DNA of 64,000 nt from an uncultured Verrucomicrobiota bacterium (GTDB lineage Bacteria > Verrucomicrobiota > Verrucomicrobiia > Limisphaerales > AAA164-E04), in assembly GCA_964342825.1 (NCBI GenBank), contig CAYFHO010000003.1:42971-106970 (forward strand), given 5' to 3'. Both the position numbers and the translations under genes were made by a program. Position 1 is the stretch's first letter, and each line of letters starts with the position of its first letter. Positions 23,758 through 61,198 of this stretch are shown one piece after another. Below the pieces are notes generated by a model that saw only the letters and a list, made by a program, of their open reading frames with translations, was not told the origin of the DNA and did no database searches.

Positions 23758-24759
23758 TTAGAGGCTGTTTCTCGGATACAAAACGATGAATCCATCATTT
23801 ACTTCCACCCGGTCCAATGCCAATGCCAAGTCATGCAATCTGGAATGGACCCTGAACAATCGATTTAAGGCACGTTTCTGGACGGGCTCTGCAATCACAT
23901 TCATAATTCCATTTCCTTGATAGATAATGGACTCAAACATGTCACCCGTCGAATCTTTAGAAAGTGCCAGGTTAGCTTTCACGGACTTGGTAGATGAAGA
24001 TATTTTCACATCCTTTCCCAACCAACCCAAAGGAATGTTAGCAATACGTTTTAGTCCATTGGAAGCCATCTGCCGCACACTTGAGTTGTGAATGCGGTGC
24101 AACCATCGATGAAAATTCTTGTGATTAACATTCAGAGAATCAACTGCAAGTCGTATTTGGCCGCCATGCATACCCAGTCTAAAAGCACCAGATCCTTTGA
24201 CGTGGATAGGATCGCTACCAAAAAATTTTGAGTCGCCAATATTGATATCGAAGAAAGTCTGCACACGGTTTTTGTGAATCTTTACCGAGGCTGAATCACG
24301 TAAATTACCCAATCGAGTGTCGTGCTTTAAGAAAGCATTTACTTCTCTTTCCCCGAGGCGAATGGGCTTTTGAGCATTACCAGCTGAAGCTAGTGTAAAG
24401 AACTGATGCAGTTTGTCCTTAACAACCTTAAATTCTTCAAACTTGATTTCCTCCTCGGGATTCAACTGTTCTTGTGTCGAAGAAAAACCCAGCTCTACTT
24501 TGCTTTGATTCATTTCAGGAACCAAAACAGATTTCATGACCAAAACGGTCACCAGCGCGAAAAGAGAAATTCCGGCCAAGGTAAAGGCTGCGAAGCTAAG
24601 AAGAATCATTGAAGGATTGATCCGCTTCGGGCGTGACTCAATGACATGCTGGTCACGCTGCTCGTGTCGCGTCAGCGTCTCTAAGGACCCATACAATCCA
24701 CTCTGTTGAAGATCAGGTTGCTGAGAAATAAGATTTGGCTGTTCAATTAAGTCTTTCAT
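23758..24759 (-). CDS. hypothetical single-pass membrane protein
   Basis: 333-aa ORF with one transmembrane segment (MILLSFAAFTLAGISLFALVTVLVM). No recognised domain. Confidence 0.55.
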   Translation of the reverse strand: MKDLIEQPNLISQQPDLQQSGLYGSLETLTRHEQRDQHVIESRPKRINPSMILLSFAAFTLAGISLFALVTVLVMKSVLVPEMNQSKVELGFSSTQEQLNPEEEIKFEEFKVVKDKLHQFFTLASAGNAQKPIRLGEREVNAFLKHDTRLGNLRDSASVKIHKNRVQTFFDINIGDSKFFGSDPIHVKGSGAFRLGMHGGQIRLAVDSLNVNHKNFHRWLHRIHNSSVRQMASNGLKRIANIPLGWLGKDVKISSSTKSVKANLALSKDSTGDMFESIIYQGNGIMNVIAEPVQKRALNRLFRVHSRLHDLALALDRVEVNDGFIVLYPRNSL

Positions 24760-35772: not shown

Positions 35773-35821
35773 TCCCCAAACGTCGTAATCCCGAACCAAT
35801 GCGAAAATAAAGTGTTGGAAA
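35773..35821 (+). repeat. 49-bp repeat, copy A (48/49 identical to 37174-37222)
   Basis: TCCCCAAACGTCGTAATCCCGAACCAATGCGAAAATAAA[G/C]TGTTGGAAA was read at both places. There is a single mismatch, at 35812 versus 37213. Confidence 0.85.
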
Positions 35822-35898: not shown

Positions 35899-36117
35899 CT
35901 ACAGTTCCTCTTTTGATACAGACCGAGTCACCGTTTGACCTCCTTTTGTTGGGATTCTCGTGACCATACGTTCGGGATGCTGCCGTTGGTTAGCGCGTGC
36001 GGCTTCGGCAATCTTTCGAAAATCGTATCCGTGTTTTGCAGCATTCTGCTCTTTCAACCTGCGCACGTCTTCAATGATCGAATCCTTCGTTTCTTCAACT
36101 ATCGCGTTCATCACCAA
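35899..36117 (-). CDS. small partner protein of the PIN-like gene (putative antitoxin-type protein)
   Basis: 72 aa. The pattern VRRLKEQNAAKHGYDFRKIAEAARANQRQHPERMV recalls small proteins encoded directly downstream of this PIN-like family. It overlaps the PIN-like gene by 23 nt. Confidence 0.45.
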   Translation of the reverse strand: MVMNAIVEETKDSIIEDVRRLKEQNAAKHGYDFRKIAEAARANQRQHPERMVTRIPTKGGQTVTRSVSKEEL

Positions 36118-36580
36118 TAAATTCTTCTGGGGTACAAATTACGGGTAAACTGACTCCGTGTCGATCAAAGCATCGTTGGATCTGACGCCTATTGTGGGGA
36201 TTTGCTATATGCCTGCAATTCCAAGTCAGTAAGAAATCCACGTTGTGCACACCTGCACAAGCAATGTGAAGGGCGTCATCAATGGCTTTGGATGGAATCA
36301 CTCCGTCAGTATGCAGATTTTCAGCCAACTCTACGACCTTATCGTCGATAACAAGAAGCCGAACATCTTCTAGCAATTGCACTCGTTTTTGAGCCATGCT
36401 GACTTCTCCTTGTGCGAGTTCATCAATGACAATTTGGGAAGTCAGTAATTCGTATCGACTGCGATGTCCGTCCCACCAATCAATCGTGAGCTGTTGCCGG
36501 GCAGCTTGAATAATATCTCGCGGCTGACGAGCAACATAGTAACTCGGAATCGTCGTTTCTATGAATACTTAGTCAGGCAT
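36095..36580 (-). pseudogene. PIN-like (VapC-type) toxin gene with an in-frame TAA at codon 4
   Basis: Minus-strand reading gives ATG CCT GAC TAA (36580-36569), then an open frame VFIETTIPSYYVARQPRDII...DDALHIACAGVHNVDFLLTWNCRHIAN... down to 36095. The first canonical start after the stop is ATG 36397, which would remove about 60 N-terminal residues. Confidence 0.55.
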
Positions 36581-36767
36581 TTCCCAACAATCCCCATTCA
36601 ACGTCCTTCAAAATCTGCGCTTCATTTAGGTCGCAACCATGGGAATCCACATAGCGCTGCAAAGCCTCTATGACTACCTCTTCCGCAGTCTTGATCCATC
36701 CAGCATGTACCATCTGCTCTAATTGACCATGAATACGGTCAAGGCATTCTACCGTGATCCTTTTCAT
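36573..36767 (-). CDS. ribbon-helix-helix / ParD-like antitoxin-type protein
   Basis: 64 aa. MKRITVECLD... forms the beta-strand, and GWIKTAEEVVIEALQRY is ParD/CopG-like. Its TGA stop overlaps the ATG of the PIN-like gene (AATGCCTGA). Confidence 0.5.
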   Translation of the reverse strand: MKRITVECLDRIHGQLEQMVHAGWIKTAEEVVIEALQRYVDSHGCDLNEAQILKDVEWGLLGNA

Positions 36768-37046
36768 AACCTAAAAATACCTGTTGGGCTACCAACTGAC
36801 AAGATTGGACATTGTGGGGGAACAGTCATTTGAGCAGGAGAATTGCCGGAATCATTTTCGATGGTCCCGATACATGTTTTTGAGAAACCTGAATTTGTCG
36901 AATTGTGCAGTGCTGGGTAAAAGAATTACATTCCTTCCCGACAGTCGCATCCATCACTGATGGCGAACTGGGTGGTAAGAGGGGGAAAAGCCTTTAAAGC
37001 TATCCTTAGTTGGTCGGGACAGCGGTATATAGGAGTTTAATAAAGC

Positions 37047-37093
37047 TGGTACTCCTGCCGGGACTCGAACCCAGATCGACGGTTTAGGAAACC
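37047..37093 (-). repeat. attL-type 47-bp copy of tRNA-Arg positions 30-76
   Basis: TGGTACTCCTGCCGGGACTCGAACCCAGATCGACGGTTTAGGAAACC is identical to 45902-45948. Sequence diverges immediately outside the repeat on both sides. Confidence 0.9.
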
Positions 37094-37173: not shown

Positions 37174-37222
37174 TCCCCAAACGTCGTAATCCCGAACCAA
37201 TGCGAAAATAAACTGTTGGAAA
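37174..37222 (+). repeat. 49-bp repeat, copy B (island-internal arm)
   Basis: 48/49 identical to 35773-35821. It lies 81 bp inside attL. Confidence 0.85.
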
Positions 37223-37242
37223 TTGTTGGAAATTGTTGGAAA
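37214..37242 (+). repeat. three tandem TGTTGGAAA motifs with 10-bp period
   Basis: TGTTGGAAA occurs at 37214-37222, 37224-37232 and 37234-37242. The same 9-mer recurs at 45741-45749, 45753-45761 and 35813-35821, always in the same orientation. Confidence 0.8.
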
Positions 37243-37323: not shown

Positions 37324-37521
37324 TCAGTCATGTTGAGTACTGAAGTCTTGATTACGGTTGGATTTCTGATGATGGGTTTTGCTTGCTGAAGCTGCATATT
37401 CATCCACGCTTTTATGCGCGACTTCTCTGACATATGGTGTGAGATACATCCCTGCCTCCTGATCGAGGTATTCCAGGATTTGGGTTGCGGATAATATGAG
37501 GTTCTTTATTTTGACATACAT
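37324..37521 (-). CDS. hypothetical 65-aa protein downstream of jetD
   Basis: The ATG is 9 nt after the jetD stop, preceded by TGAGGCAGAGGA (GAGG/AGGA Shine-Dalgarno-like). No recognisable motif. Confidence 0.35.
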   Translation of the reverse strand: MYVKIKNLILSATQILEYLDQEAGMYLTPYVREVAHKSVDEYAASASKTHHQKSNRNQDFSTQHD

Positions 37522-37530
37522 TCCTCTGCC

Positions 37531-38703
37531 TCATTTGATTAATGCATCGGTTTGATTTAAAGATCTAATTGCAGATACTATGGCTGTGTGCGGAATTTTT
37601 TCTTGCTCGATGCGTTGGTTTTTCATTTTGCACTGCTCGTATGCGTCATATTCCTCCGCAGTAAGATTATCTGAGATTTGGGAGGTCGATTTTTTACCGC
37701 GGCCAGCGAAATGCTGCCAACGAACCAGTGCTGCTGAGTCCATAAACATGCTTGTGGTGTGCGGATACAATGCTCTAAAAAGGGAGAGAATTTCGAAACC
37801 ATGAACATCTAAATCACCCCAGTATGTGATCTCGACATCATGAAGCCACTGAAACCGACGATAGTTCGCTACTGCAAAACCATGGCCAAGCATAGCGAAA
37901 GTGTTGGGAATGGTCGGAAGTGTAAGCAGGCTGATTTTGTTTTCTACGATGATGAGTCGGCATTTTGGTGGATTCAAATTTGAGACATGCCATGATGGCA
38001 GCGTCAATTCATCGACAGGAAATCCCATTGCTTCTTGGAGACCTTGGTCTAAGAACCGAATCAACACATGGGAATCCAGCCATCGAAGACCAAAGCGTGG
38101 CTCAAACTTAGACTCTTCCGCCACGATCTGTGAGGGTTTGAGTACCAGGTCAAGCCACTGATGAAGAATCGCTTTGTTTTGCTCTACCAACTTGGTATTT
38201 ACATCAACAGGGATCTCGCGTGCGTAGCAGTGAGGTCGTGGATGATTCACGAGGAAGTTGGCCACCAGAATCAGGTCTTCTATCACATCTACGACGCCAT
38301 TGAAGCGCTTCAGATTCTGGAGCAGCCATCTATCGATTAGAGTGGGGAATGCACGCTGAAGGCATTCGACCGCATCCATGTATTCAATGTATTCATTGGT
38401 TTTTGAAACCATCTTTAGGAAATCTTCCCGCGTTTCAATTTCGATTCGAACAGGAAACTGGTTCTTTCCGAACTTTCGGGATTTCTTTTCTTCCCAACGA
38501 ACCGAATAGCCATAACCCACCGCTTCTTTGCTCTTGGATCGCAGTAAATGAACTCCGAGATTTGCCTTTTGTAGATCATCCGATTGCCGAACAAGTTGGC
38601 ATCGGATCGGAAGAGGGAAGATCGTCTCTTCGTTAAGGCTGGCGCGAACAACATCCCAGTATTTGTTGAGAGCTTTCTTCTTTATTTCTTCTGGGGAAAT
38701 CAT
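37531..38703 (-). CDS. jetD: Wadjet JetD (Toprim-type nuclease subunit)
   Basis: 390 aa. The C-terminal module has the Toprim-like Glu in IIVENK (E254) and the DxD in YWGDLDVHGF (D297/D299, 37807-37815). There is a 4-nt overlap with jetC. Confidence 0.8.
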   Translation of the reverse strand: MISPEEIKKKALNKYWDVVRASLNEETIFPLPIRCQLVRQSDDLQKANLGVHLLRSKSKEAVGYGYSVRWEEKKSRKFGKNQFPVRIEIETREDFLKMVSKTNEYIEYMDAVECLQRAFPTLIDRWLLQNLKRFNGVVDVIEDLILVANFLVNHPRPHCYAREIPVDVNTKLVEQNKAILHQWLDLVLKPSQIVAEESKFEPRFGLRWLDSHVLIRFLDQGLQEAMGFPVDELTLPSWHVSNLNPPKCRLIIVENKISLLTLPTIPNTFAMLGHGFAVANYRRFQWLHDVEITYWGDLDVHGFEILSLFRALYPHTTSMFMDSAALVRWQHFAGRGKKSTSQISDNLTAEEYDAYEQCKMKNQRIEQEKIPHTAIVSAIRSLNQTDALIK

Positions 38704-41700
38704 GAGCCGGTTTTGTCAGTCAGTTCCTTGAATTCTCGTGAGTTCATGGTAAGTACCTCAGATTTTGAGGTATTCGGATCGATCATGGTTTGCACGTAAT
38801 ACTGCACGTACCTTTCGGCAACGCGGGCTTTGGCATCCAAGGGGGCAACAATCAAGAGCTGCAAGCCAAAGCTGGCAAATAGATCGAGGGCGTATTCCGC
38901 AAAATGGTCGTCGATTTTCGAGAACATCTCGTCCACCATGACGAAGTGGAAACGATCACTTTCGTCGGCGGCTGGGTCGATATCGTATTGGTAGGCAATG
39001 GCGGCAACCAGAATGGTGAACGCGAGCTTGGCCTTTTGGCCGCCCGACTGCCCTGCACTGTCTGAGTAGGAACTTCGCTCGTCTCCGGATTCCTGATCGA
39101 GTTCACGAGCGATAAAATCAAACCATCGTCGCACATCAGAGACTTTATTTCGCCACCGCTCTTCCTCGCCGAGGCGTCTGATGAGTTTTTCGATTCGTTT
39201 GAATCTGGCTTCGTTGGCTTCCAATGAATCTTCGAAACCACCACTGATGCACTCGCTGAGCTGTTGTTTGAATTCCGTGATTTCGCGATCGAAGACGTCC
39301 CTAGGCTCCAACCGCATAACTGTCCCGGGATTGAATTCCACGTTTTTCAAGGCTTGATTTAGAATCGCGATCTTGTTCCGAATTCGCCCTTGTTCAGTCT
39401 GCAAATTGCCATTTAGCAGGCCGATTTCATGCGTGACTTTTTCGTTCAGCCGTTCCTTGAAGCGTTTTTCATGGTGCGGCAATCCTTCCGACTCGATTTT
39501 TTCCAATCTATCTAAAAATGACCCGAGATACTCCGACTGAGGTTTCATATCGCGTTCAAATTGCGCGAATTTACGCAAAAAGCGCCCCATACTCTGTTCG
39601 AGGTTGGCGCGGATGGGATCCAGTTCCTTGCGTGCCATTTCAATTTGTTCGTAGTTGTCGCGATTAAAATTCTGCTCAGCCTGATTGAGATTTTCAGGAG
39701 TCAAAGTGCCTTTCGGGTATTCGGTATCCAATCGTGAAAAATATCCTTGGTGTATGGTTAGTTCACCTGAAGCTTCGAATTTAGTCCAAGCCGAAGAAGC
39801 ATTGGCCAATCGTTGTTCCAGATTATCACGTGTGTCCTTCAAGCGAGCTTCCTGCCGTAGTGAGTCGTCGCGGTCATCATTGAGTTTCGCTTTGCGTTCT
39901 ACTGCACGTTTCAGTTCGGTCTTAAGTACGCGGATACTGTCATCAGCTTGCTCTAGCTCCTCCTTTTCCTTTTTCAACCGATAGATTGTGAGGGCTTCAC
40001 TCCGGTAATCGATCTGCTCGTAGGAATTAAACTTCAATGCTTGTTCAATGGCGTGAAGGCGTCTGTTAATACGGCCGAGTGCCCCCTTTTTTCGGTCTCT
40101 CTTTTCAGTCAGCTGATGGACGGTGGAGCCGAAGTCTTTGATTCGCATTTCTAAGTGCTGGATTTTAGCTTTGTTGTCCCAACCAAGAACATAGCGCCCG
40201 GGGTCCACCTGCTTGGTTCGGTCGTCTTTAACGTGGTATACGCTGCTAGTCTTGACGTGCCGCTCTTTCGTCATTGCAAATTCTTTAGCAGAGCGAAATT
40301 CATCCATGGTTTCGCAGCACGTATAATTGAAGCGTTGTTCCAATTGAATTTGTAACCATGGAAGGAGTGAGTGATTGGATTTGAGATTGATTTTGTTAAG
40401 AAGTGAATTCGGGAGAATGAGGGATTCGTGAGACGTGGTGACATCAGATTCCACCTTGAGGTAAACCAGACGCTGCCCTTCATTTCGGTTGTTGGCCAAT
40501 CTCGTACGTTCTACGTAGTTGCTGACCTGTCGGTAATGTTCCTTTGGAACGAGTAAGCTGAGGCCAAAGCTGCGCAGTACCATTTCGATGGAACTCTCCC
40601 ATTCGCGGTGTTCCTGTTTTACCGAAATCAGTTCAGCTGCATAAGGCAGACTTGCTTCCTGTAGCCCGAGATTTCGACAGATCTCAGCCCTAAGTTCCAC
40701 CAAACTTTCATCCATGTTGGTCCGCCTCTGTTTGAGCGCGTTTCGTTCCCGTTCCAGGTTCTCCTTTTGTTTTGTCGCTTCGCGTAATTCAATAGCGAGG
40801 TTAGTTACCTCATCGTCGAAGCGCCTGAATTCCGGCTTCAGCCTACTCTGAAGTTCGTTGAGTTCTTTTCGTTTTGCGACGAAGCTGTCCGCGTCGCTGA
40901 TTTCCGGTCGAAGTTCAGCCGATTTCAACGTTTCACCGAATTCGTTGAACGCCCGTTCTTTGTGTGATCTTTCAGTTTCGTGTAATTTGATCAAATTCGG
41001 GATCTCTTTCAGTCGATCACCTCCAGCATTCTCAATGTCATTTGTCAGCTTGGTGATATCAGAATCCGCCCGACCAATTTCCTCCTTTAGTTGTTGGATC
41101 GTTGTCCTGATCCGTTGAAGTTGATCGGAGACCTCATTGAATAGCGGGCGGAGCAATTTAAGTGTTCGCAACACGAAGTATGCCTCGGCCGCTGCTTTGA
41201 GAGCTTGCAGTTCCGTGAGTCGTTTTGATTGCTCATTAAATGATTCTCCAAATTTGGCAACCGGCAGCAGCAGATCCCGCTGATCGCGAATATCCACCAA
41301 GGAATTGTATGCTTCCGAAAGGTCCGCGAAGTGTCCAAGGATACCCTTGATTTGATGACCACAGTCAGGTTTTTCCAACATATGGGCACGAATGAAATCG
41401 TTGAGACTGCGAATGTCTTTTACTGCGACGGTCTGATTGAAGACGTCCATCGCCTTTTCTTGCATGCCGGCATAGGTGCGGATCCTTTTCGAGTACTCAG
41501 CAAAATGGGGCGATGCTTCCCAGCCTTTTCGTATTATCTTCTTTCGTAGCTGTGCCGTGCCTTGAATGCCGTTCAAGTGGTCTGCGATTGAGCGTTCTTG
41601 TTCCGAGAAACAGAAAACCTTGTGAATCTTCTCATCAGTTCCGGGAACCAGCACTTGTGCGATGGTGAACTCTTTTTGACTCCCTGAATTGACGAAGTGG

Positions 41701-42068
41701 GCTAGCAGACAGGAATAGAACTGATATCCGGTTCGGAGGTAGCGAGTCTGGGCACGATTACTTTCTTCAGAACTTCCATGGCCGTAAGCCCCCTTTACGT
41801 AACTGGACTCATTCCGTTCACGCTTACCCGTTGTTCCAGCTGCGACATTGTAATTTCGAATATTCTGAGGAACCAACAGAGTGAGAATGGCGTCGACCAA
41901 CGTGGATTTGCCTGAACCGTTCAGGCCGACCAAAAGCGTCGCTCTTCCATTCGGGCGAACGGTGTAAACCTGCCCGTCTGAACTGTCGAAAGTGCCCCAA
42001 TTGAACACCTCCATCTTGCTCAGACGAAATCCAGGAAAGGCAGGCAACTTATGGAAATGTTCATCCAT
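38700..42068 (-). CDS. jetC: Wadjet JetC (SMC/MukB-like ABC ATPase)
   Basis: 1122 aa. Walker A GLNGSGKST (41901-41927), about 800 aa of coiled-coil-like E/K/R/L-rich sequence, then the signature-like SGGQKAKL and Walker B FHFVMVDEMFSKID. Confidence 0.85.
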   Translation of the reverse strand: MDEHFHKLPAFPGFRLSKMEVFNWGTFDSSDGQVYTVRPNGRATLLVGLNGSGKSTLVDAILTLLVPQNIRNYNVAAGTTGKRERNESSYVKGAYGHGSSEESNRAQTRYLRTGYQFYSCLLAHFVNSGSQKEFTIAQVLVPGTDEKIHKVFCFSEQERSIADHLNGIQGTAQLRKKIIRKGWEASPHFAEYSKRIRTYAGMQEKAMDVFNQTVAVKDIRSLNDFIRAHMLEKPDCGHQIKGILGHFADLSEAYNSLVDIRDQRDLLLPVAKFGESFNEQSKRLTELQALKAAAEAYFVLRTLKLLRPLFNEVSDQLQRIRTTIQQLKEEIGRADSDITKLTNDIENAGGDRLKEIPNLIKLHETERSHKERAFNEFGETLKSAELRPEISDADSFVAKRKELNELQSRLKPEFRRFDDEVTNLAIELREATKQKENLERERNALKQRRTNMDESLVELRAEICRNLGLQEASLPYAAELISVKQEHREWESSIEMVLRSFGLSLLVPKEHYRQVSNYVERTRLANNRNEGQRLVYLKVESDVTTSHESLILPNSLLNKINLKSNHSLLPWLQIQLEQRFNYTCCETMDEFRSAKEFAMTKERHVKTSSVYHVKDDRTKQVDPGRYVLGWDNKAKIQHLEMRIKDFGSTVHQLTEKRDRKKGALGRINRRLHAIEQALKFNSYEQIDYRSEALTIYRLKKEKEELEQADDSIRVLKTELKRAVERKAKLNDDRDDSLRQEARLKDTRDNLEQRLANASSAWTKFEASGELTIHQGYFSRLDTEYPKGTLTPENLNQAEQNFNRDNYEQIEMARKELDPIRANLEQSMGRFLRKFAQFERDMKPQSEYLGSFLDRLEKIESEGLPHHEKRFKERLNEKVTHEIGLLNGNLQTEQGRIRNKIAILNQALKNVEFNPGTVMRLEPRDVFDREITEFKQQLSECISGGFEDSLEANEARFKRIEKLIRRLGEEERWRNKVSDVRRWFDFIARELDQESGDERSSYSDSAGQSGGQKAKLAFTILVAAIAYQYDIDPAADESDRFHFVMVDEMFSKIDDHFAEYALDLFASFGLQLLIVAPLDAKARVAERYVQYYVQTMIDPNTSKSEVLTMNSREFKELTDKTGS

Positions 42069-42711
42069 CGCGTGAATCGCCGGAATTTTGGGCGTCGTGC
42101 TTAACTACGTGTTCGTTTAGCATTTGCCGAATGTCTTCCAATTGTTGCACCCCGATTCGTGCCTTGAGAATTCGGCGAATTTCTAAGTCGTCGCCGTCTG
42201 GATTCAACGGCTTTAGAAAACCAAGATCCTTGACCGTTCTGATGGCTGAATCGAAGTCTCGCTGAAGTTTTCCTTCATTGCTGTTCTCTGGAACGAATGC
42301 TTTCCAATCTTCATATAAATCGGCCTTACGAACCACACAACGTGTTGAGTCTACCTGTTCGTCATCAAAACGACGAAGTTCATCACGAAGCATTACGCAA
42401 AGCACAGTTGCTGCATATCCCAAGCGGCTCTTCTGAAACAGCTTCGGCAGATTCTCATAACCTTCTGGTGCTTGGTCGTCTTCCCCGATCGGACGGAGGA
42501 ATGCGTAGCCTTCCGGTTCATCCAAAATCAACACCATCCCAATGAATGCGAAATGCCTCTCCAGACGGGAGCGATGTGTCAATACGATTTCCCAAACCCG
42601 CTCGTCAGATTCGTAAACCACCCCTTGCAAGAGTCTGACAGCTGCGGTGCTAGCGTCATGAAAGTCTGGAAATGTGAATCCTACCGCTGTGCGTTGTTGC
42701 GCGTCGTCCAT
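42061..42711 (-). CDS. jetB: Wadjet JetB (DUF4194-like, MukE/KITE analogue)
   Basis: 216 aa. LLQGVVYESDERVWEIVLTHRSRLERHFAFIGMVLILDEPEGYAFLR matches my memory of the DUF4194 core. There is an 8-nt overlap with jetC. Confidence 0.75.
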   Translation of the reverse strand: MDDAQQRTAVGFTFPDFHDASTAAVRLLQGVVYESDERVWEIVLTHRSRLERHFAFIGMVLILDEPEGYAFLRPIGEDDQAPEGYENLPKLFQKSRLGYAATVLCVMLRDELRRFDDEQVDSTRCVVRKADLYEDWKAFVPENSNEGKLQRDFDSAIRTVKDLGFLKPLNPDGDDLEIRRILKARIGVQQLEDIRQMLNEHVVKHDAQNSGDSRDG

Positions 42712-44177
42712 TATTCCTCTTTGGCTTGGTTTCGAAATACCACATGAGGTAAATCAATGACTCGGGTGGATTTGCCCTCCTCTTCTAGTCGGATCTCGTC
42801 TGTGAGATCTGCATCAACATAATGATCATCCTGTCGCGCGATCTGCAAGTAACCTAACAATTCCACGGCACCAGCCTTGGGAGGATGAAGGCCGACAAGT
42901 TCCGGCAGACTGATCGCGGGCTTCGCATCTAAACATTGGCGGATTTTGTCGCGCATCCCTTTCCAATCCAGTCGGGCCATCTGTGCCAACATCCGAAATG
43001 CCGCGCCCCGTTTATTCTCGCCTGGCGAATGCTCGCTGACAGAAACTGGATCGAATGTCTGGGGAGGATTCCAGAATGTTCGATGAAACGGATTGGAGAT
43101 CGCGATTCCATGGTCAATTTCGATTGAAAAGTCTCCTTTCGGTGGATTATCAACGCATCTCGTGGCCAAACCCTTGATCTCTTTAAGCAAATGCCGGAGC
43201 CGTCGACGATCATTCACCGCATCCTCGTCCAGCAATCGTCGCAATGCAGTGGTCAGACGCTGGTTCGTGCTCATGATCTTGCGAGCTTCAGCCAGCAACA
43301 TAGGAACCATCTCGTGGAGATGCCGAAGACCATCATTGTGATCAGACAATTCCTTCAGCTCGCTGATGCGCGCGGTCCTCTCCTGAAGTTGCGACTGCTG
43401 CTTGGGCGAAAGAATCAGGCTTACGAAGGCATAGAAGCTGACACCTTGATCGTCCTGCTTTAGACAGTCTTCCTCATCCAATGCGAAACCTAGCAAACCT
43501 CCCCTACTATCGCTTTCGGCGATCTGCCGTTTCTGCACTTCTCTTGTAATGGACTTGAATCGTTCCTCGACCATTCTGAAATCGCCGAGCAATTCCTTGA
43601 GTTGTCTCAAGACGAAGAAAAACAACTCCCGAATCTGGGCTGCTTCGTAACGAAGTACATCACCGGTTCTCTGTATGTCATTCATTTCCGCTTCGATTTG
43701 ACACTTTTTTTCTTGAAGGTGCTGCAGTCGCCCCTCCGGATCATCAGAAGCGTGTATCACGATTTCCTCTAGTTTCTGCAGTACAAGTCGAATTCTAGAT
43801 TCTGTAGCAATTGAGCCGAGATCCTTTTGCACAGCACGGTCCAGAAATTGAATGACATCCTCTGTATGCGGTGTGAGTTGAAATTGAGCCTCGTCAGACC
43901 CTTTGTCGTAATAACGGGTTAGATAGCGCGAATCTTCGTGACACCATTCGTTGAGATAGTCTTCGGGACGTTGCACCAGTGCATCAGGCTCTGTTTCCTG
44001 TATCTCGTCGCGATAGGCACGAAGTTCAACGAGCAATTCAGTTTCTGGAATTGTGATACGTCCGCCTGTTTTGAACTGGCGAAACAGGAATTCGATGACG
44101 TAGGGAGCTGTTCCTGCCCGAAGGAGTTTTACCGAGGGCGAAGTCTTAAAGAATGTCTGCAGATCACGAAGCTTCAC
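42711..44177 (-). CDS. jetA: Wadjet JetA (DUF3375-like, MukF/kleisin analogue)
   Basis: 488 aa with a GTG start. The N-terminus PSVKLLRAGTAPYVIEFLFRQFKTGGRITIPETELLVEL is typical of DUF3375. There is a 1-nt overlap with jetB (TAATG). Confidence 0.75.
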   Translation of the reverse strand: MKLRDLQTFFKTSPSVKLLRAGTAPYVIEFLFRQFKTGGRITIPETELLVELRAYRDEIQETEPDALVQRPEDYLNEWCHEDSRYLTRYYDKGSDEAQFQLTPHTEDVIQFLDRAVQKDLGSIATESRIRLVLQKLEEIVIHASDDPEGRLQHLQEKKCQIEAEMNDIQRTGDVLRYEAAQIRELFFFVLRQLKELLGDFRMVEERFKSITREVQKRQIAESDSRGGLLGFALDEEDCLKQDDQGVSFYAFVSLILSPKQQSQLQERTARISELKELSDHNDGLRHLHEMVPMLLAEARKIMSTNQRLTTALRRLLDEDAVNDRRRLRHLLKEIKGLATRCVDNPPKGDFSIEIDHGIAISNPFHRTFWNPPQTFDPVSVSEHSPGENKRGAAFRMLAQMARLDWKGMRDKIRQCLDAKPAISLPELVGLHPPKAGAVELLGYLQIARQDDHYVDADLTDEIRLEEEGKSTRVIDLPHVVFRNQAKEE

Positions 44178-44986
44178 AGTGCAAAACGGAATGTTGCCAT
44201 TTCATTCGAAAAAATAGTGCATACCATTGGACAAATACCGTCCAAGGCTGAAGTTTTTAGGATTAGGTTGCCTCTTCGTCATAAATTTTTTGCAGCGGCT
44301 CGGCATTGGTGGAAAGCGAGTCGGAGTGGGATAGCCTGGTCTAAACGCTCTTCCCTCCCAATAGACCCAAGTATTTATTGTATCGGCCACTTTCCGATTT
44401 CCATATCAATCTTCCCCTGAATGCTGCATAGCATGAAACTTATTGACGCTCATTCAATTTTTGAACCAACCAGATTGATAGCATGTTACGTCACAGTAGG
44501 ATCTGATTTTCTGGTTGTCAAGATCCTTGCATCGAGAAGGCCATAGGTTGAAGCGACCAAGGACCAAAGTCGTTCATTTCAGCCATCCAAACATGGAATC
44601 ATGGCTTGAGTGGAGGAGTCTGTCGAAGCTGTATTGAGGTTTGCAATAGCGGCGTACTCACACCGAATCACCTATAGTGTGGAGGGCGTTCGAAACTTTC
44701 TATGCCTTATCGCTTTGGGTTTGTAGAAACCATACGGGGAGATTTTGGTAGCGAAATTGCCGTGATGACTTGTGCAAATTGGATATGGACAGGCTCGATT
44801 CATTGTAAGAGAGGAGGACAATGGATCTGTCTTTTTTTTGATCAATGCCCAACTTATACAAGCAGAGAGAGGTGCGCGGCTACCAATAGCTAAATTCCAC
44901 AATTGACGGCAGAAGCACAGGTTTAACCTTTCTTTACTGCCAATTGTAGAAGATTGTAAGTGTGCACTTCGATGATTTTTGGGAAT

Positions 44987-45388
44987 TCACGTAGGTGTGA
45001 TGAGATTGATGTTGGGAAAATAAGTTCGATAGCGAGCCACGTCCCGGGTGACTAGTGTGTAGCCTTCGACCTCAGCGTGCGCTCCAATGTAGAAATCTGG
45101 CATCGGCGACATCTTCGTACCTCCGCTGCGTCTGTATTTCAAAAACGCTTGCGAGGCGAGCCATCCCGCGGAGTAGGGCAATGATAATCGTTGAAACACC
45201 TCTGGATCGAGCCAACGATCAAGGTCTGCAGCTGTGGCGAATGCTGGGGCAAGCTCGGCGTAGATGATAGGATTGATAGGAATCGGCCCCTTCGCAGCAG
45301 CACGACGGAATTCTTCTTCCGACCATGCCAGCCAGGCGGTATCAGCGGTGGCGATATCGAGCAGGACGTTCGTGTCGAAAAGAATCAT
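44987..45388 (-). CDS. vapC: PIN-domain toxin VapC
   Basis: 133 aa. MILFDTNVLLD carries the first acidic PIN residue, and there is a later ...HAEVEGYTLVTRD segment. There is a 4-nt overlap with the upstream antitoxin gene. Confidence 0.75.
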   Translation of the reverse strand: MILFDTNVLLDIATADTAWLAWSEEEFRRAAAKGPIPINPIIYAELAPAFATAADLDRWLDPEVFQRLSLPYSAGWLASQAFLKYRRSGGTKMSPMPDFYIGAHAEVEGYTLVTRDVARYRTYFPNINLITPT

Positions 45389-45588
45389 TCCTCGCTTCGA
45401 GTGAGTTTCATCACATCCTCGGTTTTCAAGTCAGGCTTCGCCGCACCGCGTGCACTTTGCAGCCAATTTTCAACTGGCGGAGGCGTGGCACGTTCTTGAC
45501 GGAAAGCTTCAAACCAACGCGCCAATTGATCCACTTGCGGCTTGGGCAATTTTTCAATCGCGGCTTCAATTTCAGCAACGCTACTCAT
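45385..45588 (-). CDS. VapB-type antitoxin (addiction-module component)
   Basis: 67 aa. EIEAAIEKLPKPQVDQLARWFEAF plus the C-terminal RGAAKPDLKTEDVMKLTR is a pattern common in partners of PIN toxins. Confidence 0.6.
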   Translation of the reverse strand: MSSVAEIEAAIEKLPKPQVDQLARWFEAFRQERATPPPVENWLQSARGAAKPDLKTEDVMKLTRSEE

Positions 45589-45740
45589 AGCAGCAATCTA
45601 GCACGCCACCCCCTCGGCAGGCAAGAATCGAACTGCTCATCTTGGATAGCACGTGCATTCGCCTATAGGTATTAGAACATGCTTGTAGTTTGTGAGGATG
45701 AATGATCGAGTGTAGGAATGTTGATTCAGTTACTACCAGC

Positions 45741-45761
45741 TGTTGGAAAAGTGTTGGAAAA
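45741..45761 (+). repeat. two TGTTGGAAA motifs on the tRNA-proximal island arm
   Basis: TGTTGGAAA occurs at 45741-45749 and 45753-45761, about 140-160 bp from the 47-bp core at 45902. Confidence 0.75.
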
Positions 45762-45901
45762 ATTGTGCCACTTGAAGAATTGGATCAGAAAGGTGAGCAG
45801 CGTCCCCCTTTCTTCCCGAATTCTCTCCCAATGATCCCGAAAACGAAAACTGCGGTTCTTTAAACCGTCGATATAAAAATATAATAATATTTACATCTTA
45901 G

Positions 45902-45977
45902 TGGTACTCCTGCCGGGACTCGAACCCAGATCGACGGTTTAGGAAACCGATGTTCTATCCAGTTGAACTACAGGAGC
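45902..45977 (-). tRNA. tRNA-Arg (anticodon CCT), 76 nt with encoded CCA
   Basis: Hand-folded. Acceptor GCTCCTG/CAGGAGT; D arm GTTC-AACTGGATA-GAAC; anticodon arm TCGGT-TTCCTAA-ACCGT (U33, CCT, A37, with a 27:43 T-T mismatch); 4-nt variable loop; T arm CTGGG-TTCGAGT-CCCGG; A73 and CCA. Confidence 0.85.
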
Positions 45978-46065: not shown

Positions 46066-46935
46066 TTACGGGTTTTGTTTGCTGAGTCTTTGAACCTGTC
46101 TCAAAAGGATTGGAAAGGCAGGCTCGGTCATTCCGTGACCGTAGCCTTGGAGTTCGTAGAGGATCGTTTCTTTGTGTCCGGCGACTTTCATCATACGCAT
46201 CATGTAGGCGTTTTCTTCATATCTGCCGAGCAATTCCAATTCACGATCTCCGGTAATAAGTATGAGTGGTGGAGCATCGGCCCTGACATGATAGAGCGGT
46301 GCCAATGCATCAATGATGGGTTGTTCGCCGGCAATGCCCCTCTCCTCACGGACGGTGAAGTGTGTGATGGTGTGTCCGCTGAATGGTATCAAACCGGCAA
46401 TCGAGTTGGCATCTATGGAATGAGCCGCGAGCCATTGCTTGTCCAAACCGATCATGGATGCAAGGTATCCTCCTGCGGAATGTCCAGAGAGGTAGATTAA
46501 GTTAGGATCACCTCCATATTCTGATATATGTTTGAATACCCAGGCAACTGCGGCAGCAGCATCCTGGATATAGACGGGGCTTTTAACTTTCGGAAACAAT
46601 CGGTAGTTCGGGGCTACGATGATCATTCCCTGTTCTCTGAGCCTGGAGGGAATCTGCTTTTCCCCACTGCGCAATCCCCCACCATGGAACCAGATGATAG
46701 TTGGTGCATGGTTGGCTTCTTCCGGAACGTAAATATCCAACTTACATCTTTGTGCGGCATAGGCATCGAAACCTGGTTGATGGGCGACAAGGTAGGGAAT
46801 ATCGCTATGTGATTGTTGCTGTTTTTTCTCTGAAGCTGAAAGATCCAGGCCAGGAATGGCTTTTCCTGATAGGATCAAAATCAACATCAGGAGATGAAAA
46901 ATATCCTGTTTTAGGGACAGACGATTTGAATTCAT
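46066..46935 (-). CDS. alpha/beta hydrolase (esterase/lipase-like), secreted
   Basis: Oxyanion motif WFHGGG and nucleophile elbow GHSAGG. Signal peptide present. Confidence 0.7.
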   Translation of the reverse strand: MNSNRLSLKQDIFHLLMLILILSGKAIPGLDLSASEKKQQQSHSDIPYLVAHQPGFDAYAAQRCKLDIYVPEEANHAPTIIWFHGGGLRSGEKQIPSRLREQGMIIVAPNYRLFPKVKSPVYIQDAAAAVAWVFKHISEYGGDPNLIYLSGHSAGGYLASMIGLDKQWLAAHSIDANSIAGLIPFSGHTITHFTVREERGIAGEQPIIDALAPLYHVRADAPPLILITGDRELELLGRYEENAYMMRMMKVAGHKETILYELQGYGHGMTEPAFPILLRQVQRLSKQNP

Positions 46936-57273: not shown

Positions 57274-57477
57274 ATGAATTCTAATCAATTGTTCAGTAAT
57301 GGTCAGATTCAAGCGGTAAGACTACCGAAGCAGTTTCGATTTGAAGGTGAAGGGGTTTACATGAGCAAAATGGGGAATGGAATCGTTTTAACTCCAACCG
57401 TTACTTCATGGGAACATCATGCCAAGTGTTGGTTCGGTAAGGTCGGGTACCCATCAAAAACTTTTCCACCTCACTAA
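57274..57477 (+). CDS. orphan AbrB/SpoVT-type VapB antitoxin remnant
   Basis: LFSNGQIQAVRLPKQFRFEGEGVYMSKMGNGIVLTP matches the VapB/MazE swapped-hairpin domain. There is no vapC downstream, and the last 77 nt overlap the convergent kinase gene. Confidence 0.45.
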   Translation: MNSNQLFSNGQIQAVRLPKQFRFEGEGVYMSKMGNGIVLTPTVTSWEHHAKCWFGKVGYPSKTFPPH

Positions 57478-60400
57478 GTGGCGATTGGAAGGTGAATTTC
57501 GCAACCATTAATCCTGAGTCGGGGAAACCGCTGTTTGAACGACCAGAGCGAATGAGCGTTTCTCCCTTTTTAGTGATCAATTGAGCATCGAAAGATCGAT
57601 GACCTAATTTTTTGTTATTGTAAGCGATCGATATAAAAGCCTTTCCATCGGCATCCTCACCCACTCCACTTAATTGCCCCTCACCCTCGAGTGAAATAGC
57701 TTGTGAATGACCGGGAGAAATCTCCTTGATATTCTCCAGTGGCCCGATCACATAGGACAATTGAATATCAAGTTTCTTAGGAATTTCGGACGGAACACCA
57801 GGACTGAATGTCCAGTAGTGCCAACCTAACCATCCATTTTCTTCCCGAGGTTCCTGGACCCCATGTGTCACGCTGGACATCCCTGCAAACATGATAGGAA
57901 CTCCCGAGGAATCAAAGAGGTTTACCTTCGTTTCCGAAGCATGATCAAAAGCCGGATGAGAAAACCACACATGTAAAAATCTTGGTTCGGGGTCCAGTTC
58001 CATCGCACTGATATCCATGCCAGCGGGTGGAACGTGCTGAAGCCAACCCAAGAAATCGGTATCACCTTGGGGGATGCTTTCCACCCTCCATACGGCATTA
58101 GTTCCCCCTTTATTCCATTCATCCTGCCAGGCAAGAAACTGTAGCGCGGGTTTTTCGTTTAAATCCTGCACAGAAAGTTCTGATACTGCAGTCGCTGGTT
58201 TCAAGATATCAGTTGATTTCTTCGGTTCCCGTTTAACCCGGGACCACAGTAAATACTTCCAACCCTCGCGATGTTCAATTTGCGCGAACTCAGGAGCCGC
58301 TCCCAAAGGCAAGAATGTCCATTGCCTTGCATTTCTTTCCACATCATGAAGCCCTTTCTGAATTTCCTCTTCGCTAAGTGATTCAGGCAATCGCCAAACA
58401 AGCACGTTGGAATCTTCTGCGCCGACCCACTTGGTCTGATGACCGTACTCCTCCCAAAAATCAGAAGGGATTTGTTCGCCATTGGGACCTGCCAGGTAGG
58501 TTTGAGTTACTTCGATCCCATACCCCGGACGCTTTTCACTCTCAAAATGCACTTCAATGCGATTGGACCCTTTGGGCGAAAGGGCTTTGATAAATTTAAA
58601 AGGTATGCCAGGTAAACCATCATCCACCGTTTCCAGCACTGGCTTTGTCACCAGCTGAGGGACGGAAGAGCGAACATCGCGAATGATTTTCCACAAGACG
58701 GATTGAGGCCAGAAAACCAATACCGAAAGAATAATGAAATAGACTATCAGGGAAATCGGCTTAGCATGACGAATGGAAAGTAGTTGCAACTTATCGTTTC
58801 CTACCAATTGTGCCTCAACCCCGTTTTCCCGAGACCACTGAGTGGTGCAAAGCAATCGACGCTGCATGGTCCAGATGATTGGTAAACTGGCGAAAAAGAG
58901 AAAAAAAGCCGTAACCCATACTACGACATCCCAATTGTCTTCCGTATATTTTGAGATGAAGAAAGACCCGAAACTGAGTCCTGAAATCCAAATACCTATC
59001 AGGAGACCGTAGAAGTTCATTTCTGCTCTTTCCCTTCGAGTCATATGAGAAATAATTTCTCTGGCAATCGGAGAAGTGAAAGGAGAAATAAACCAGGTAG
59101 ATCGCTTTTGATTCGAAGAAAGCTTCTTCACCTTTTCGATGCTCGCCGGTGGCGGCACTTCTATGTGATAGTCTTCAACTTTCCACTCCCCGTTGGTCTG
59201 CAAGCCGCAGGTGATCGATTCCAACGCTGTCTTGCCGTTCTCAAATTCGGTCAAACAACGTTGCTCAAAACGTCTGGCAGGTTCGGTAAAATCAAGCGAA
59301 AGCGTTTTCCTTGTCGATGCTTTTGCCAAAGATCGACGGGATAACTCCATTTTCCTTATCCAGTCATCCTTCCTGTACAAATCCTGAAAAGAGGCAGCAG
59401 TGTTGGACCAGCACCTATCATAATCCCGAGATTCCAATAGTTTCCAAAAATTAAAAACATACTGGGAATGTTCTGCATGATGGATCGTTTGCCCCTTTCC
59501 TTTCAGAGCACGTTTAAGCATAACGCCCACCAAAACCGCACCCATTACCGAATTCCAGATCATGACCGTGCCTGGGGAGGGAGCTCCACCCAAAACCAAT
59601 TGCATGAGAACGACCATCAGACATGACATCACGCAAATAATCGCGATCATCATGGTGAATGTCAGACCAAGTCTTGGCCAATCTACTCTTAATTCATGGT
59701 CGTGGTTTTTAACTAAATCCCAAACAAAGACACGGTCCTTGCGCGGTAAACGGCTTCCAGCTTGCCATTCCGTGCGACTCAAACAAACGAAACAAATCCA
59801 ATGGAGACAAGCGAGCAAGCCAACTGCAAAGCTTTTCGTGCTTGTGTGCAACTCCCCAATATTATGTCCTTTGGTGAAATCACGAATCGATTCATACCAG
59901 GGTTCCCATAATCCAAAAGACCACGTTTCAACGGAAACTAGATGACTCACCGGACTCAAGGTGAGTTCAGGTGTTGGCCAACAAAAAAGGGTGGTCATTC
60001 CAACACCGGCTACCATCATGATTTGAAAAATGAATAATCGATGTATCTTGGGAAGCGATATCCAACGCAATTGCCAGTGCTCTAATAGAGGCTCATCTTG
60101 CGTCGCCTTTTCGCTCATTGGTAAATTCTCATCAGAACCCTGAGCAATGCTTTCAATTTGAGTTTTGAGTGCGCTTGCTTGCTGGTATCGTTGTTCTGGT
60201 TTTTGCTCCAAAGCACGCATGACGACTTCATCCAGCCTGACATCAATCAAAACTTTTTTCGAAGGAGGTTCCAATCGCTGATCAGGCAACTCTCCCGTCA
60301 GCATTTGATAAAAAACCACTCCCAAGGCGTATATGTCAGCACGATGATCCACGGATTGTGGAGAATGCGTTTGCTCAGGAGACATGTACTTTGGGGTTCC

Positions 60401-61198
60401 CATTATTTTCCCTGCCTCCGTGACCTCTTCCTTGGTATGGCTGACAATCTTTTTGGATTCAGGCAATTCTGCTTCCTGACCGTTTGCAATCATCTTGGCC
60501 AATCCAAAGTCGGCAACTTTGACATTGCCTCGTCGATCCATGAGAATATTTTCAGGTTTGATATCGCGATGAACAATGCCGTGGTCATGAGCAAATTGCA
60601 GGGAGTCACAAATTTGAGGAACGATGGCCAAAGCTTCACGAGAAGAAATCCGTTCACCCTGGAGCAACTGACGTAAATTGACTCCGTCCACATACTCCAT
60701 CAAAAAGAAATAGAGCGGCTCCCCAGGCAATTTCGATTGTTTTTCCTGTATCATGCCTTGTGCCTGAGATTCCGCAGTGGATTTTCCTTCGAAGGGCAAC
60801 TCCACCTTTCCGAAATCGTAAATCGTGATGATCCCTGGGTGATTCAGCTTGGCAAGCGCTTTGGCTTCTCTGGAAAATCTCTGAGCAAAGTTTTCATTGT
60901 GCCCAATATCAGGAGGAAGAATTTTAAGAGCGACAATACGATCGAGTTCTTTCTGTCTGGCTTTATATACAGCACCCATCCCCCCCTGACCAATCAACCC
61001 AAGAATTTCAAGCTGTGGAAATAATTCGGTCATAATCTCCAATGCAGGAGGGGTAAATCCTGGCCCGGGACCTGTCTCGGTTTCCAATCCACTTTGAAAT
61101 CCCGCCTGCATCAGACATTCCGGGCACAATCCCAAAGGAACGTTTGAGGCAAGAGGTTTTTTGCAACTGGGACAATAACGATCCGTTTTCATAATCAA
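57401..61198 (-). CDS. membrane Ser/Thr protein kinase with N-terminal zinc ribbon and a large C-terminal extracytoplasmic region
   Basis: 1265 aa. CPSCKKPL...CPECL zinc ribbon; kinase motifs GQGGMGAVYKA, HRDIKPENIL, DFGLAK and GTPKYMSPEQ; several transmembrane segments; a C-terminal region of about 500 aa with no recognised motif. Confidence 0.85.
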   Translation of the reverse strand: MIMKTDRYCPSCKKPLASNVPLGLCPECLMQAGFQSGLETETGPGPGFTPPALEIMTELFPQLEILGLIGQGGMGAVYKARQKELDRIVALKILPPDIGHNENFAQRFSREAKALAKLNHPGIITIYDFGKVELPFEGKSTAESQAQGMIQEKQSKLPGEPLYFFLMEYVDGVNLRQLLQGERISSREALAIVPQICDSLQFAHDHGIVHRDIKPENILMDRRGNVKVADFGLAKMIANGQEAELPESKKIVSHTKEEVTEAGKIMGTPKYMSPEQTHSPQSVDHRADIYALGVVFYQMLTGELPDQRLEPPSKKVLIDVRLDEVVMRALEQKPEQRYQQASALKTQIESIAQGSDENLPMSEKATQDEPLLEHWQLRWISLPKIHRLFIFQIMMVAGVGMTTLFCWPTPELTLSPVSHLVSVETWSFGLWEPWYESIRDFTKGHNIGELHTSTKSFAVGLLACLHWICFVCLSRTEWQAGSRLPRKDRVFVWDLVKNHDHELRVDWPRLGLTFTMMIAIICVMSCLMVVLMQLVLGGAPSPGTVMIWNSVMGAVLVGVMLKRALKGKGQTIHHAEHSQYVFNFWKLLESRDYDRCWSNTAASFQDLYRKDDWIRKMELSRRSLAKASTRKTLSLDFTEPARRFEQRCLTEFENGKTALESITCGLQTNGEWKVEDYHIEVPPPASIEKVKKLSSNQKRSTWFISPFTSPIAREIISHMTRRERAEMNFYGLLIGIWISGLSFGSFFISKYTEDNWDVVVWVTAFFLFFASLPIIWTMQRRLLCTTQWSRENGVEAQLVGNDKLQLLSIRHAKPISLIVYFIILSVLVFWPQSVLWKIIRDVRSSVPQLVTKPVLETVDDGLPGIPFKFIKALSPKGSNRIEVHFESEKRPGYGIEVTQTYLAGPNGEQIPSDFWEEYGHQTKWVGAEDSNVLVWRLPESLSEEEIQKGLHDVERNARQWTFLPLGAAPEFAQIEHREGWKYLLWSRVKREPKKSTDILKPATAVSELSVQDLNEKPALQFLAWQDEWNKGGTNAVWRVESIPQGDTDFLGWLQHVPPAGMDISAMELDPEPRFLHVWFSHPAFDHASETKVNLFDSSGVPIMFAGMSSVTHGVQEPREENGWLGWHYWTFSPGVPSEIPKKLDIQLSYVIGPLENIKEISPGHSQAISLEGEGQLSGVGEDADGKAFISIAYNNKKLGHRSFDAQLITKKGETLIRSGRSNSGFPDSGLMVAKFTFQSPLSEVEKFLMGTRPYRTNTWHDVPMK

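Follow-up and report, generated by a model that had tools for sequence, protein, structure and literature searches.

Gene content of the locus

The DNA analysed here is a stretch of 64,000 nucleotides, called the window throughout, from contig CAYFHO010000003.1 of an uncultured Verrucomicrobiota bacterium (assembly GCA_964342825.1), and all positions are counted from its first letter. In the region 37531-44177 of the window, four genes follow one another on a single strand in the order A-B-C-D and are named here jetA, jetB, jetC and jetD after the type I Wadjet system, to which they are assigned (Table 1). The jetA and jetB genes overlap by 1 nt (TAATG), jetB and jetC by 8 nt, and jetC and jetD by 4 nt (ATGA). 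The list of open reading frames (ORFs) agrees exactly with a preliminary description of this DNA, which had reported four same-strand genes of 488, 216, 1122 and 390 aa with overlaps of 1, 8 and 4 nt, and every motif named in that description was located where it had been placed. An AGAGGA Shine-Dalgarno sequence precedes jetB, and the GTG start of jetA is validated by the JetA1 profile of PADLOC, positions 1-478 of which align to residues 1-483 of the protein.

The intergenic spacer on the 5' side of jetA is unusually long for a window as dense in genes as this one and presumably holds the promoter or the regulatory region of jetA. No recognisable remnant gene was found in it, a six-frame Pfam scan (E<=1) and a search against Rfam both being empty, and a scan for terminators gave a result at or below the expectation from shuffled sequences.

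Table 1. Positions of the jet genes, their motifs and the surrounding features in the window
Feature	Position	Strand	Description
jetA	42711-44177	-	488 aa, GTG start; kleisin-like subunit, DUF3375
jetB	42061-42711	-	216 aa; KITE/MukE-like subunit, DUF4194/MksE
jetC	38700-42068	-	1122 aa; ATP-binding cassette (ABC) ATPase resembling structural maintenance of chromosomes (SMC) proteins and MukB
JetC Walker A GLNGSGKST	41901-41927		aa 48-56 (K54)
JetC signature SGGQKAKL	39024-39047		aa 1008-1015
JetC Walker B FHFVMVDEMFSKID	38910-38951		aa 1040-1053 (D1046/E1047)
jetD	37531-38703	-	390 aa; aCAP (DUF3322) and Toprim nuclease
JetD IIVENK	37936-37953		aa 251-256 (E254)
JetD YWGDLDVHGF	37795-37824		aa 294-303 (D297/D299)
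Orphan ORF	37324-37521	-	65 aa; 9 nt 3' of the jetD stop; Shine-Dalgarno-like GAGG 7 nt 5' of its ATG
Spacer 5' of jetA	44178-44986		809 nt, ORF-poor, no ORF >76 aa
VapC-like PIN toxin gene	44987-45388	-	133 aa; Pfam PIN 3.2e-6, marginal (28.2 bits, cutoff 23.6); NCBIfam VapC 1.5e-3, far below cutoff
Putative antitoxin ORF	45385-45588	-	67 aa; overlaps the PIN gene by 4 nt
tRNA-Arg(CCT), intact	45902-45977	-	ARAGORN; Rfam tRNA 61.7 bits; sole tRNA of the window
attL-type core	45902-45948	-	3' 47 nt of tRNA-Arg(CCT); direct repeat D2
attR-type core	37047-37093	-	partial tRNA copy, 47 nt, 100% identical; far island boundary, spacing 8,855 bp
Two TGTTGGAAA iterons	45741-45760	+	about 150 nt from the attL core; adjoin the 92-nt module
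Three TGTTGGAAA iterons	37214-37242	+	about 120-150 nt from the attR core; overlap the 49-nt repeat D1

Assignment to type I Wadjet

To each of the four proteins, family models and solved structures could be matched. For JetA, the Pfam family DUF3375 was returned at 4.2e-91, covering positions 3-474 of 474, together with PADLOC JetA1 at 3.6e-104 and the JetA chains 8dk1_A (1e-9) and 8q72_E (3e-9) of the PDB. JetB matched Pfam DUF4194 (9.5e-36) and MksE (6.4e-11), PADLOC JetB1 (4.7e-50) and, when a profile of four sequences was used, the JetB chains 8as8_C/9qxt_C (1.8e-8). The JetC1 model of PADLOC was aligned to JetC over profile positions 14-1118 of 1123 with E=0 and 1033 bits, and the Pfam domains AAA_29 (3e-20) and SbcC_Walker_B (6.8e-20) were found in the same protein. 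JetD matched Pfam JetD_C, the former DUF2220, at 3.4e-40, DUF3322 at 5e-26 and PADLOC JetD1 at 9.4e-122. NCBIfam gave no model specific to the four Jet proteins, and the type I models of PADLOC cover all four of them over their full length. Since the family E-values run from about 1e-36 down to 0, the operon is not a product of chance.

These matches bear out the identification as type I Wadjet made in the preliminary description, in which the families DUF3375, DUF4194, AAA_29 with the SbcC Walker-B domain, and DUF3322 with DUF2220 had been predicted and all of which were returned. The same description had made the identification depend on a profile or structural match to the JetA-D families, and all four proteins match both the family models and solved JetA, JetB, JetC, JetD or MksG chains. 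Taken together, these data indicate that the region 37531-44177 very probably encodes a complete and apparently functional type I Wadjet system (JetABCD, also known as MksBEFG and EptABCD), a reading to which we assign a probability of about 0.92. The operon is canonical and no feature of it departs from type I. The locus is a moderately divergent new member of a thoroughly characterised system, and the Wadjet family is already recognised by Pfam, by PADLOC and by tools of the DefenseFinder type.

Catalytic residues and predicted fold of JetC and JetD

In JetC, 951 residues separate the Walker A motif from the signature motif, an interval that takes in the hinge and what remains of the N-terminal head lobe. 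The protein is collinear with E. coli JetC (8as8_A) in a single alignment of residues 12-1077 to residues 11-1052 (3.7e-58), which supports an SMC architecture. The Walker B glutamate E1047 of the window's JetC is aligned to E1022 of the E. coli protein, and E254 of its JetD to residue 248 in the chain of the E. coli JetD(E248A) variant. Both positions are functionally important in E. coli, where JetC(E1022Q) is ATPase-dead and JetD(E248A) nuclease-dead, and where each of the two substitutions abolishes plasmid restriction (10.1101/2022.10.04.510915). In an alignment of 50 JetD homologues, the residues E254, N255, Y294-W-G-D297, D299, G302 and E366-Q-E368 are invariant.

The preliminary description had also proposed a Toprim-like module at the C-terminus of JetD and had named a different fold there as an argument against the Wadjet identification. 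The predicted fold agrees with a Toprim module. An AlphaFold2 monomer model of JetD reached a predicted local distance difference test score (pLDDT) of 94.2 and a predicted template modelling score (pTM) of 0.79, and when this model was used as a query in Foldseek, it retrieved MksG (1.3e-21, template modelling score, TM, of 0.62-0.65), the JetD of P. aeruginosa (7til, 1e-17), the Spo11 core complex (3.6e-5), the Topo VI of M. mazei (5.1e-5) and the Toprim fragment of E. coli JetD (TM 0.70). By sequence, the PDB matches of JetD are MksG (8b7f, 2.3e-21, or 3e-42 with a profile) and the JetD chains 7til and 8q72.

Proposed mechanism

A plasmid-restriction phenotype that needs all four subunits, and the ATP-dependent cleavage of small circular DNA irrespective of its sequence, are known from the Wadjet homologues of E. 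coli, B. cereus, P. aeruginosa and C. glutamicum, and the mechanism is carried over here by homology from the reconstituted systems of E. coli, P. aeruginosa and C. glutamicum (PMC10586767; 10.1101/2023.11.03.565488; 10.1101/2022.10.04.510915). On this basis, we infer for the present locus the assembly of the complex, loop extrusion, the sensing of circles, cleavage and a plasmid-restriction phenotype. Dimers of JetC would be closed by the kleisin JetA and would carry the KITE protein JetB, and two such motor units would form a dimer. The JetABC complex would then load on DNA and extrude loops at the expense of ATP. If the DNA is a small closed circle (below about 50-100 kb), extrusion would go to completion and the motors would stall against each other. 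The DNA still left would be bent by the stalled motors and offered to a JetD dimer, whose Toprim sites would cut it whatever its sequence. The chromosome and linear DNA would be spared, and the outcome would be plasmid restriction.

A probable island at the 3' end of tRNA-Arg(CCT)

The operon lies between the intact tRNA-Arg(CCT) gene and an identical partial copy of its 3' end (Table 1). A direct repeat of a tRNA 3' end is the classical mark of site-specific integration, and, judged from the sequence, the 3' end of tRNA-Arg(CCT) has apparently received an 8,855-bp island that carries jetABCD as cargo. Between the two repeats are found a VapBC-like pair, the 809-nt spacer, jetABCD and the orphan 65-aa ORF. 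The junction formed by jetD, the orphan ORF and the partial tRNA recurs at 100% identity in L084 and L085, contigs from two independent marine metagenome assemblies of which one belongs to Tara Oceans (PRJEB4352); because both assemblies share this junction, an assembly artefact is an unlikely origin of the repeat. The flanks consist of core genes, namely a fabD-like gene, an esterase gene, an M50 peptidase gene, a cluster of the hemE/hemN/amine-oxidase type, Lon, XseA and others. The VapBC-like pair probably stabilises the island; its 67-aa putative antitoxin has no match in Pfam, NCBIfam or PADLOC.

The preliminary description had called the context unusual. The features that it cited, an integrase-less tRNA island, toxin-antitoxin neighbours and an extra small ORF, were all found, the toxin-antitoxin neighbours as VapBC-like genes, and their unusualness was overstated, Wadjet being known both in bacteria of the Planctomycetes-Verrucomicrobia-Chlamydiae (PVC) group and at tRNA hotspots. 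In E. coli, Wadjet systems are documented on mobile elements that occupy integration hotspots, and these hotspots lie in many cases in tRNA loci (PMC10121019).

A second toxin-antitoxin-like pair is observed just outside the island, formed by the frame 36095-36568(-) and, preceding it, a 64-aa partner ORF (36573-36767(-)) without a family match. The frame matches Pfam PIN (2.9e-5) only if it is extended 5' of its first ATG, no canonical start being present before residue 59, and it is probably a decaying toxin gene.

Use of the tRNA-Arg(CCT) site in relatives

Syntenic loci, designated like all other compared loci by L and a number, were found by a scan of contigs that carry the esterase gene next to the tRNA, an esterase that is widely shared across phyla. 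The closest syntenic relatives are marine metagenome-assembled genomes (MAGs) of Verrucomicrobiota. Four loci in such MAGs share the order hemE, M50 peptidase, esterase, tRNA-Arg with the window at 70-79% nucleotide identity, three of the four have an identical 47-nt tRNA end, and the synteny stops exactly at the tRNA. The same 47-nt end was found on 23 metagenome contigs of the Joint Genome Institute (JGI), of which 5 carry partial copies. One of the contigs with a partial copy followed by foreign DNA (L098) is 99.9% identical over 902 nt to a contig with an intact tRNA (L097) and 99.8% identical over 895 nt to another (L104), through the core, after which the sequences diverge. From this pattern, L098 and L097/L104 appear to be occupied and empty alleles of the site in a sister population. 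A further contig, L100, has the same 60-nt flank as this group.

At the tRNA-proximal end of the island, a 92-nt module (45783-45874) is 80% identical to sequences that lie beside partial copies in L095 and L103 (E 4e-21, the core being excluded). Because of the partial copies, the alleles of the sister population and this shared module, the 3' end of tRNA-Arg(CCT) is, on present sequence comparisons, a recurrent integration site in the clade, with the island of the window as an integrase-less member.

In L095, an ORF truncated by the end of the contig lies about 110 nt away from the partial copy and matches the integrase N-terminal family Phage_int_SAM_1 weakly (E=0.003, short of the Pfam cutoff); the ORF is suggestive of an integrase and was not accepted as one on a sub-threshold match. 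L102, L103 and L107 are grouped with L095 among the contigs that bear on the polymorphic tRNA-Arg(CCT) site. A similarity of positions 37030-37046 to the tRNA trailers of the relatives was considered as the signature of an empty site and rejected, as it amounts to just 8-19 AT-rich bases beyond the identical core. In a Verrucomicrobiota MAG (L007, CP170459.1, 10973-12756), an IS21-type element composed of an IstA-like rve/Mu-transposase ORF and an IstB fragment lies directly downstream of the orthologous tRNA-Arg, so the site is variable in relatives too. The esterase of the window (46066-46935(-), BD-FAE/Abhydrolase_3) has homologues with 58-77% protein identity in Verrucomicrobiota, Bacteroidota, Calditrichota, Balneolaceae, Phycisphaerae and Colwellia, a distribution that suggests an extensive horizontal spread of this gene.

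Evidence against and alternative explanations

Several observations weigh against the reading of the locus as a functional type I Wadjet system carried on an integrated island. The first concern the proteins and their expression. JetB gave no match when the PDB was searched with the single sequence, its match being obtained with the profile only. No obvious Shine-Dalgarno sequence precedes the GTG start of jetA, and no convincing promoter of the sigma-70 type was found in the 809-nt spacer, where promoter-like matches are no commoner than in shuffled sequences; the consensus of this phylum may differ. Because the closest JetD other than the protein itself is just 42% identical, the size cutoff, and with it other quantitative properties, could differ from those of the model systems. 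The others concern the island. No integrase domain or remnant was found in the ORFs of the island or in its six-frame-translated spacer, the segment 45589-45901 being covered only by the ORF 45325-45675(+), nor was an integrase present among the neighbouring ORFs of the window that were scanned. The GC content does not deviate, with 0.45-0.49 within the island and 0.45-0.50 outside, and the exact empty-site/attP junction of this island has 0 matches in the JGI metagenomes. Having no integrase of its own, the island is either immobile now or dependent on a recombinase encoded elsewhere. Since neither an integrase nor a shift in GC nor an empty-site/attP junction was found, its mobility is deduced from the repeats and from the polymorphism in the sister population.

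Some of these observations would also suit a structurally intact operon that has become a silent or inactive relic, the cargo of a decayed island. The integrase was lost or was never present, the spacer upstream of jetA is featureless and without a promoter match above chance, the PIN-like gene beside the island lacks a canonical start codon, which is a sign of local decay, and a single sequence variant of the locus is known, so that purifying selection cannot be gauged. Against a relic, the four ORFs are full length with respect to the profiles and free of frameshifts and premature stops, every catalytic or family-invariant residue that was examined is conserved, and the start/stop overlaps typical of coupled translation have been kept. 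We consider a relic improbable.

Still less probable is a housekeeping condensin of the MksBEF/MukBEF type that would organise the chromosome and have no role in defence. JetABC are indeed homologous to MksBEF and MukBEF, as reflected in the MksE match of JetB and in weak NCBIfam SMC matches of JetC. However, jetC is followed by a translationally coupled jetD gene whose Toprim catalytic residues are intact, and JetD is exclusive to the Wadjet family (10.1101/2023.11.03.565488). Moreover, all four proteins match best the PADLOC models of type I Wadjet, and the operon lies on an accessory island between tRNA repeats and is absent from the syntenic relatives, which argues against a housekeeping function.

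The mis-assignment to type I of another SMC-like defence system, be it a type II or III Wadjet, Lamassu or another, can be practically dismissed, as the weak PADLOC matches that would favour it (JetC2 5.5e-7, JetC3 8e-6, LmuB 4e-6 and JetD3 1.2e-4) cover short stretches only, whereas the type I models match JetC and JetD over their full length, the type II/III models are at least 100 orders of magnitude worse than those of type I, the JetD2 model has no match at E<=0.01, no LmuA- or LmuC-like effector is present, and the sizes and order of the genes are as in type I relatives.

Candidate recombination sites and the orphan ORF

With 7 copies in the window, the motif TGTTGGAAA is commoner than expected (1.23), and 0 of 100 shuffled sequences reached 7; 6 of the copies have one orientation and are clustered near the repeat boundaries (Table 1 lists the two groups). 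We infer from their position that these iterons are candidate arm-type recombinase sites. Straddling the attR-type core, a 49-nt direct repeat (D1, 98% identical) is observed at 35773-35821 and 37174-37222. Its inner copy is 81 nt from the partial tRNA, its outer copy lies 1.2 kb outside the island and adjoins fabD, and each copy ends in a TGTTGGAAA iteron; D1 may mark where an older tandem island, since decayed, once ended. A third, degenerate copy of the tRNA end abutting fabD (from 35716) was considered and rejected, being no better than shuffled sequences (p=0.056). At the other end, a 25-nt inverted repeat with 80% complementarity is formed by 45848-45872, in the island just outside the attL-type core, and 45930-45954, which is part of the tRNA, and the two arms of this repeat might serve as core-type binding sites for a recombinase.

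The orphan ORF downstream of jetD has only itself as a match among 5.8 billion proteins. An exhaustive HMMER search of 1.84 billion representatives returned, besides the ORF itself, two matches at E of about 1e-4 to repeats in giant proteins, and searches of Pfam, PADLOC and NCBIfam gave no match. No counterpart was found after jetD in the related loci L088, L089 and L090. A single-sequence AlphaFold2 model consists, with low confidence (pLDDT 66), of a two-helix hairpin. The ORF is probably lineage-specific or spurious, and in either case no conserved component of Wadjet.

As Wadjet cleaves any small DNA circle, the excised 8.9-kb circle of the island would be a substrate of the very system that it encodes. 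A speculative scenario, which we hold to be unlikely, is that the integrase-less islet still moves because a related element at tRNA-Arg(CCT) provides the recombinase in trans, with the TGTTGGAAA iterons as arm sites and the 92-nt module as part of att; the 65-aa gene could then be a lineage-specific modulator, and this gene or the loss of the integrase might have solved the problem of self-restriction.

Significance and other features of the window

For the biology of Wadjet the locus brings little that is new, the operon being canonical and the homologues from PVC bacteria being already named Wadjet proteins by NCBI. An active Wadjet would nevertheless bar circular plasmid vectors from marine Verrucomicrobiota and other PVC bacteria, which are hard to manipulate genetically, and the barrier could be circumvented by linear vectors or by the deletion of jetC or jetD. 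The locus is also a small and clean example of a defence system and a putative addiction module on an integrase-less element at a recurrent tRNA-Arg(CCT) site, and it agrees with the accepted view that defence genes travel on islands that are, or once were, mobile.

Elsewhere in the window, two large neighbouring genes encode Ser/Thr kinases of the eukaryote type, one of 1265 aa with a DUF4019 domain (57401-61198(-)) and one of at least 624 aa that reaches the edge of the window (62119-63993(-)). Two further ORFs are without Pfam matches, a 770-aa ORF at 608-2920(-) at E<=1e-5 and a 333-aa ORF at 23758-24759(-) at E<=1.

Comparison with relatives and known systems

In public data (NCBI and ENA), the window's JetD has one exact twin, on a contig of up to 288 kb, and the closest JetD apart from this one is 42% identical. 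Relatives at 38-41% identity include proteins from Planctomycetaceae MAGs and are encoded in canonical jetABCD operons of Planctomycetota and other phyla; in L088, L089 and L090 the genes agree with those of the window in order, sizes and overlaps. The locus of Allorhodopirellula solitaria (SJPK01000001.1, L090) resembles that of the window in its A-B-C-D order, in its gene sizes (509/219/1131/384 aa) and in the 4-nt overlap of jetC and jetD; its JetD is 40% identical to that of the window and is already named a Wadjet JetD-domain protein by NCBI. Unlike the window, A. solitaria has no small ORF on the same strand after jetD; it does have a 65-aa ORF on the opposite strand, which shows no relationship to the orphan ORF of the window.

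The closest non-self homologues of JetD were observed outside jetABCD operons, in JGI 3300056808 and in Logan assemblies of the Sequence Read Archive (L001 10001-11167, L086 9001-10167 and L087 2786-3952). They are 42% identical to the window's JetD, match PADLOC JetD1 strongly, and each lies directly 3' of a gene for an unannotated protein of 804-812 aa. In L001-L003 a PIN gene is found between the 804-812-aa gene and jetD, with an 82-aa upstream partner ORF called in L001 only. These homologues could be orphan JetD genes or parts of an undescribed two-gene arrangement. The 804-812-aa neighbour was considered as a cryptic JetC and a 535-aa neighbour as a cryptic JetA, and both were rejected, neither having any similarity to these proteins or a match in Pfam or PADLOC. 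A PIN pair or the small ORF as a conserved companion of this JetD clade was rejected as well, the PIN protein of L001 and the 65-aa ORF of L090 both being unrelated to those of the window.

Among the characterised systems, JetABCD of E. coli GF4-3 (8as8, 8bfn, 8q72, 9qx*) is like the window in its four subunits, in their order and in the collinearity of JetC over about 1,050 residues. It is distant in sequence, the single-sequence JetD match (3.9e-8) covering only the C-terminal half, and the setting differs, the system of the window belonging to an uncultured marine Verrucomicrobiota-like host and to a tRNA-Arg island. The best solved relative of the window's JetD, by sequence as well as by fold, is MksG of C. 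glutamicum (8b7f), which has the same VEN...YWGDLD Toprim motifs; it differs in belonging to an actinobacterial system and in an identity of about 21% in the structural alignment, which begins at query residue 76-78. In P. aeruginosa PA14 (7til, 8dk1-3), JetA, JetB, JetC and JetD all match those of the window, but the sequences are distant and the TM of JetD against the window's model is lower, at 0.42, as the CAP and Toprim domains are oriented differently to one another (closed, autoinhibited state).

The condensins MukBEF and MksBEF share with the window the combination of an SMC-like ATPase, a kleisin and a KITE protein, a likeness also seen in the match of JetB to Pfam MksE. They are, however, encoded in the core chromosome and lack a Toprim nuclease, whereas the window has JetD and carries its genes on an accessory island. 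Finally, the arrangement of CAP and Toprim domains in the JetD model is that of Topo VI-A and Spo11, at an identity of 8-11%; known JetD proteins are nucleases in which the catalytic tyrosine found in the CAP domain of the topoisomerases is missing (PMC10586767).

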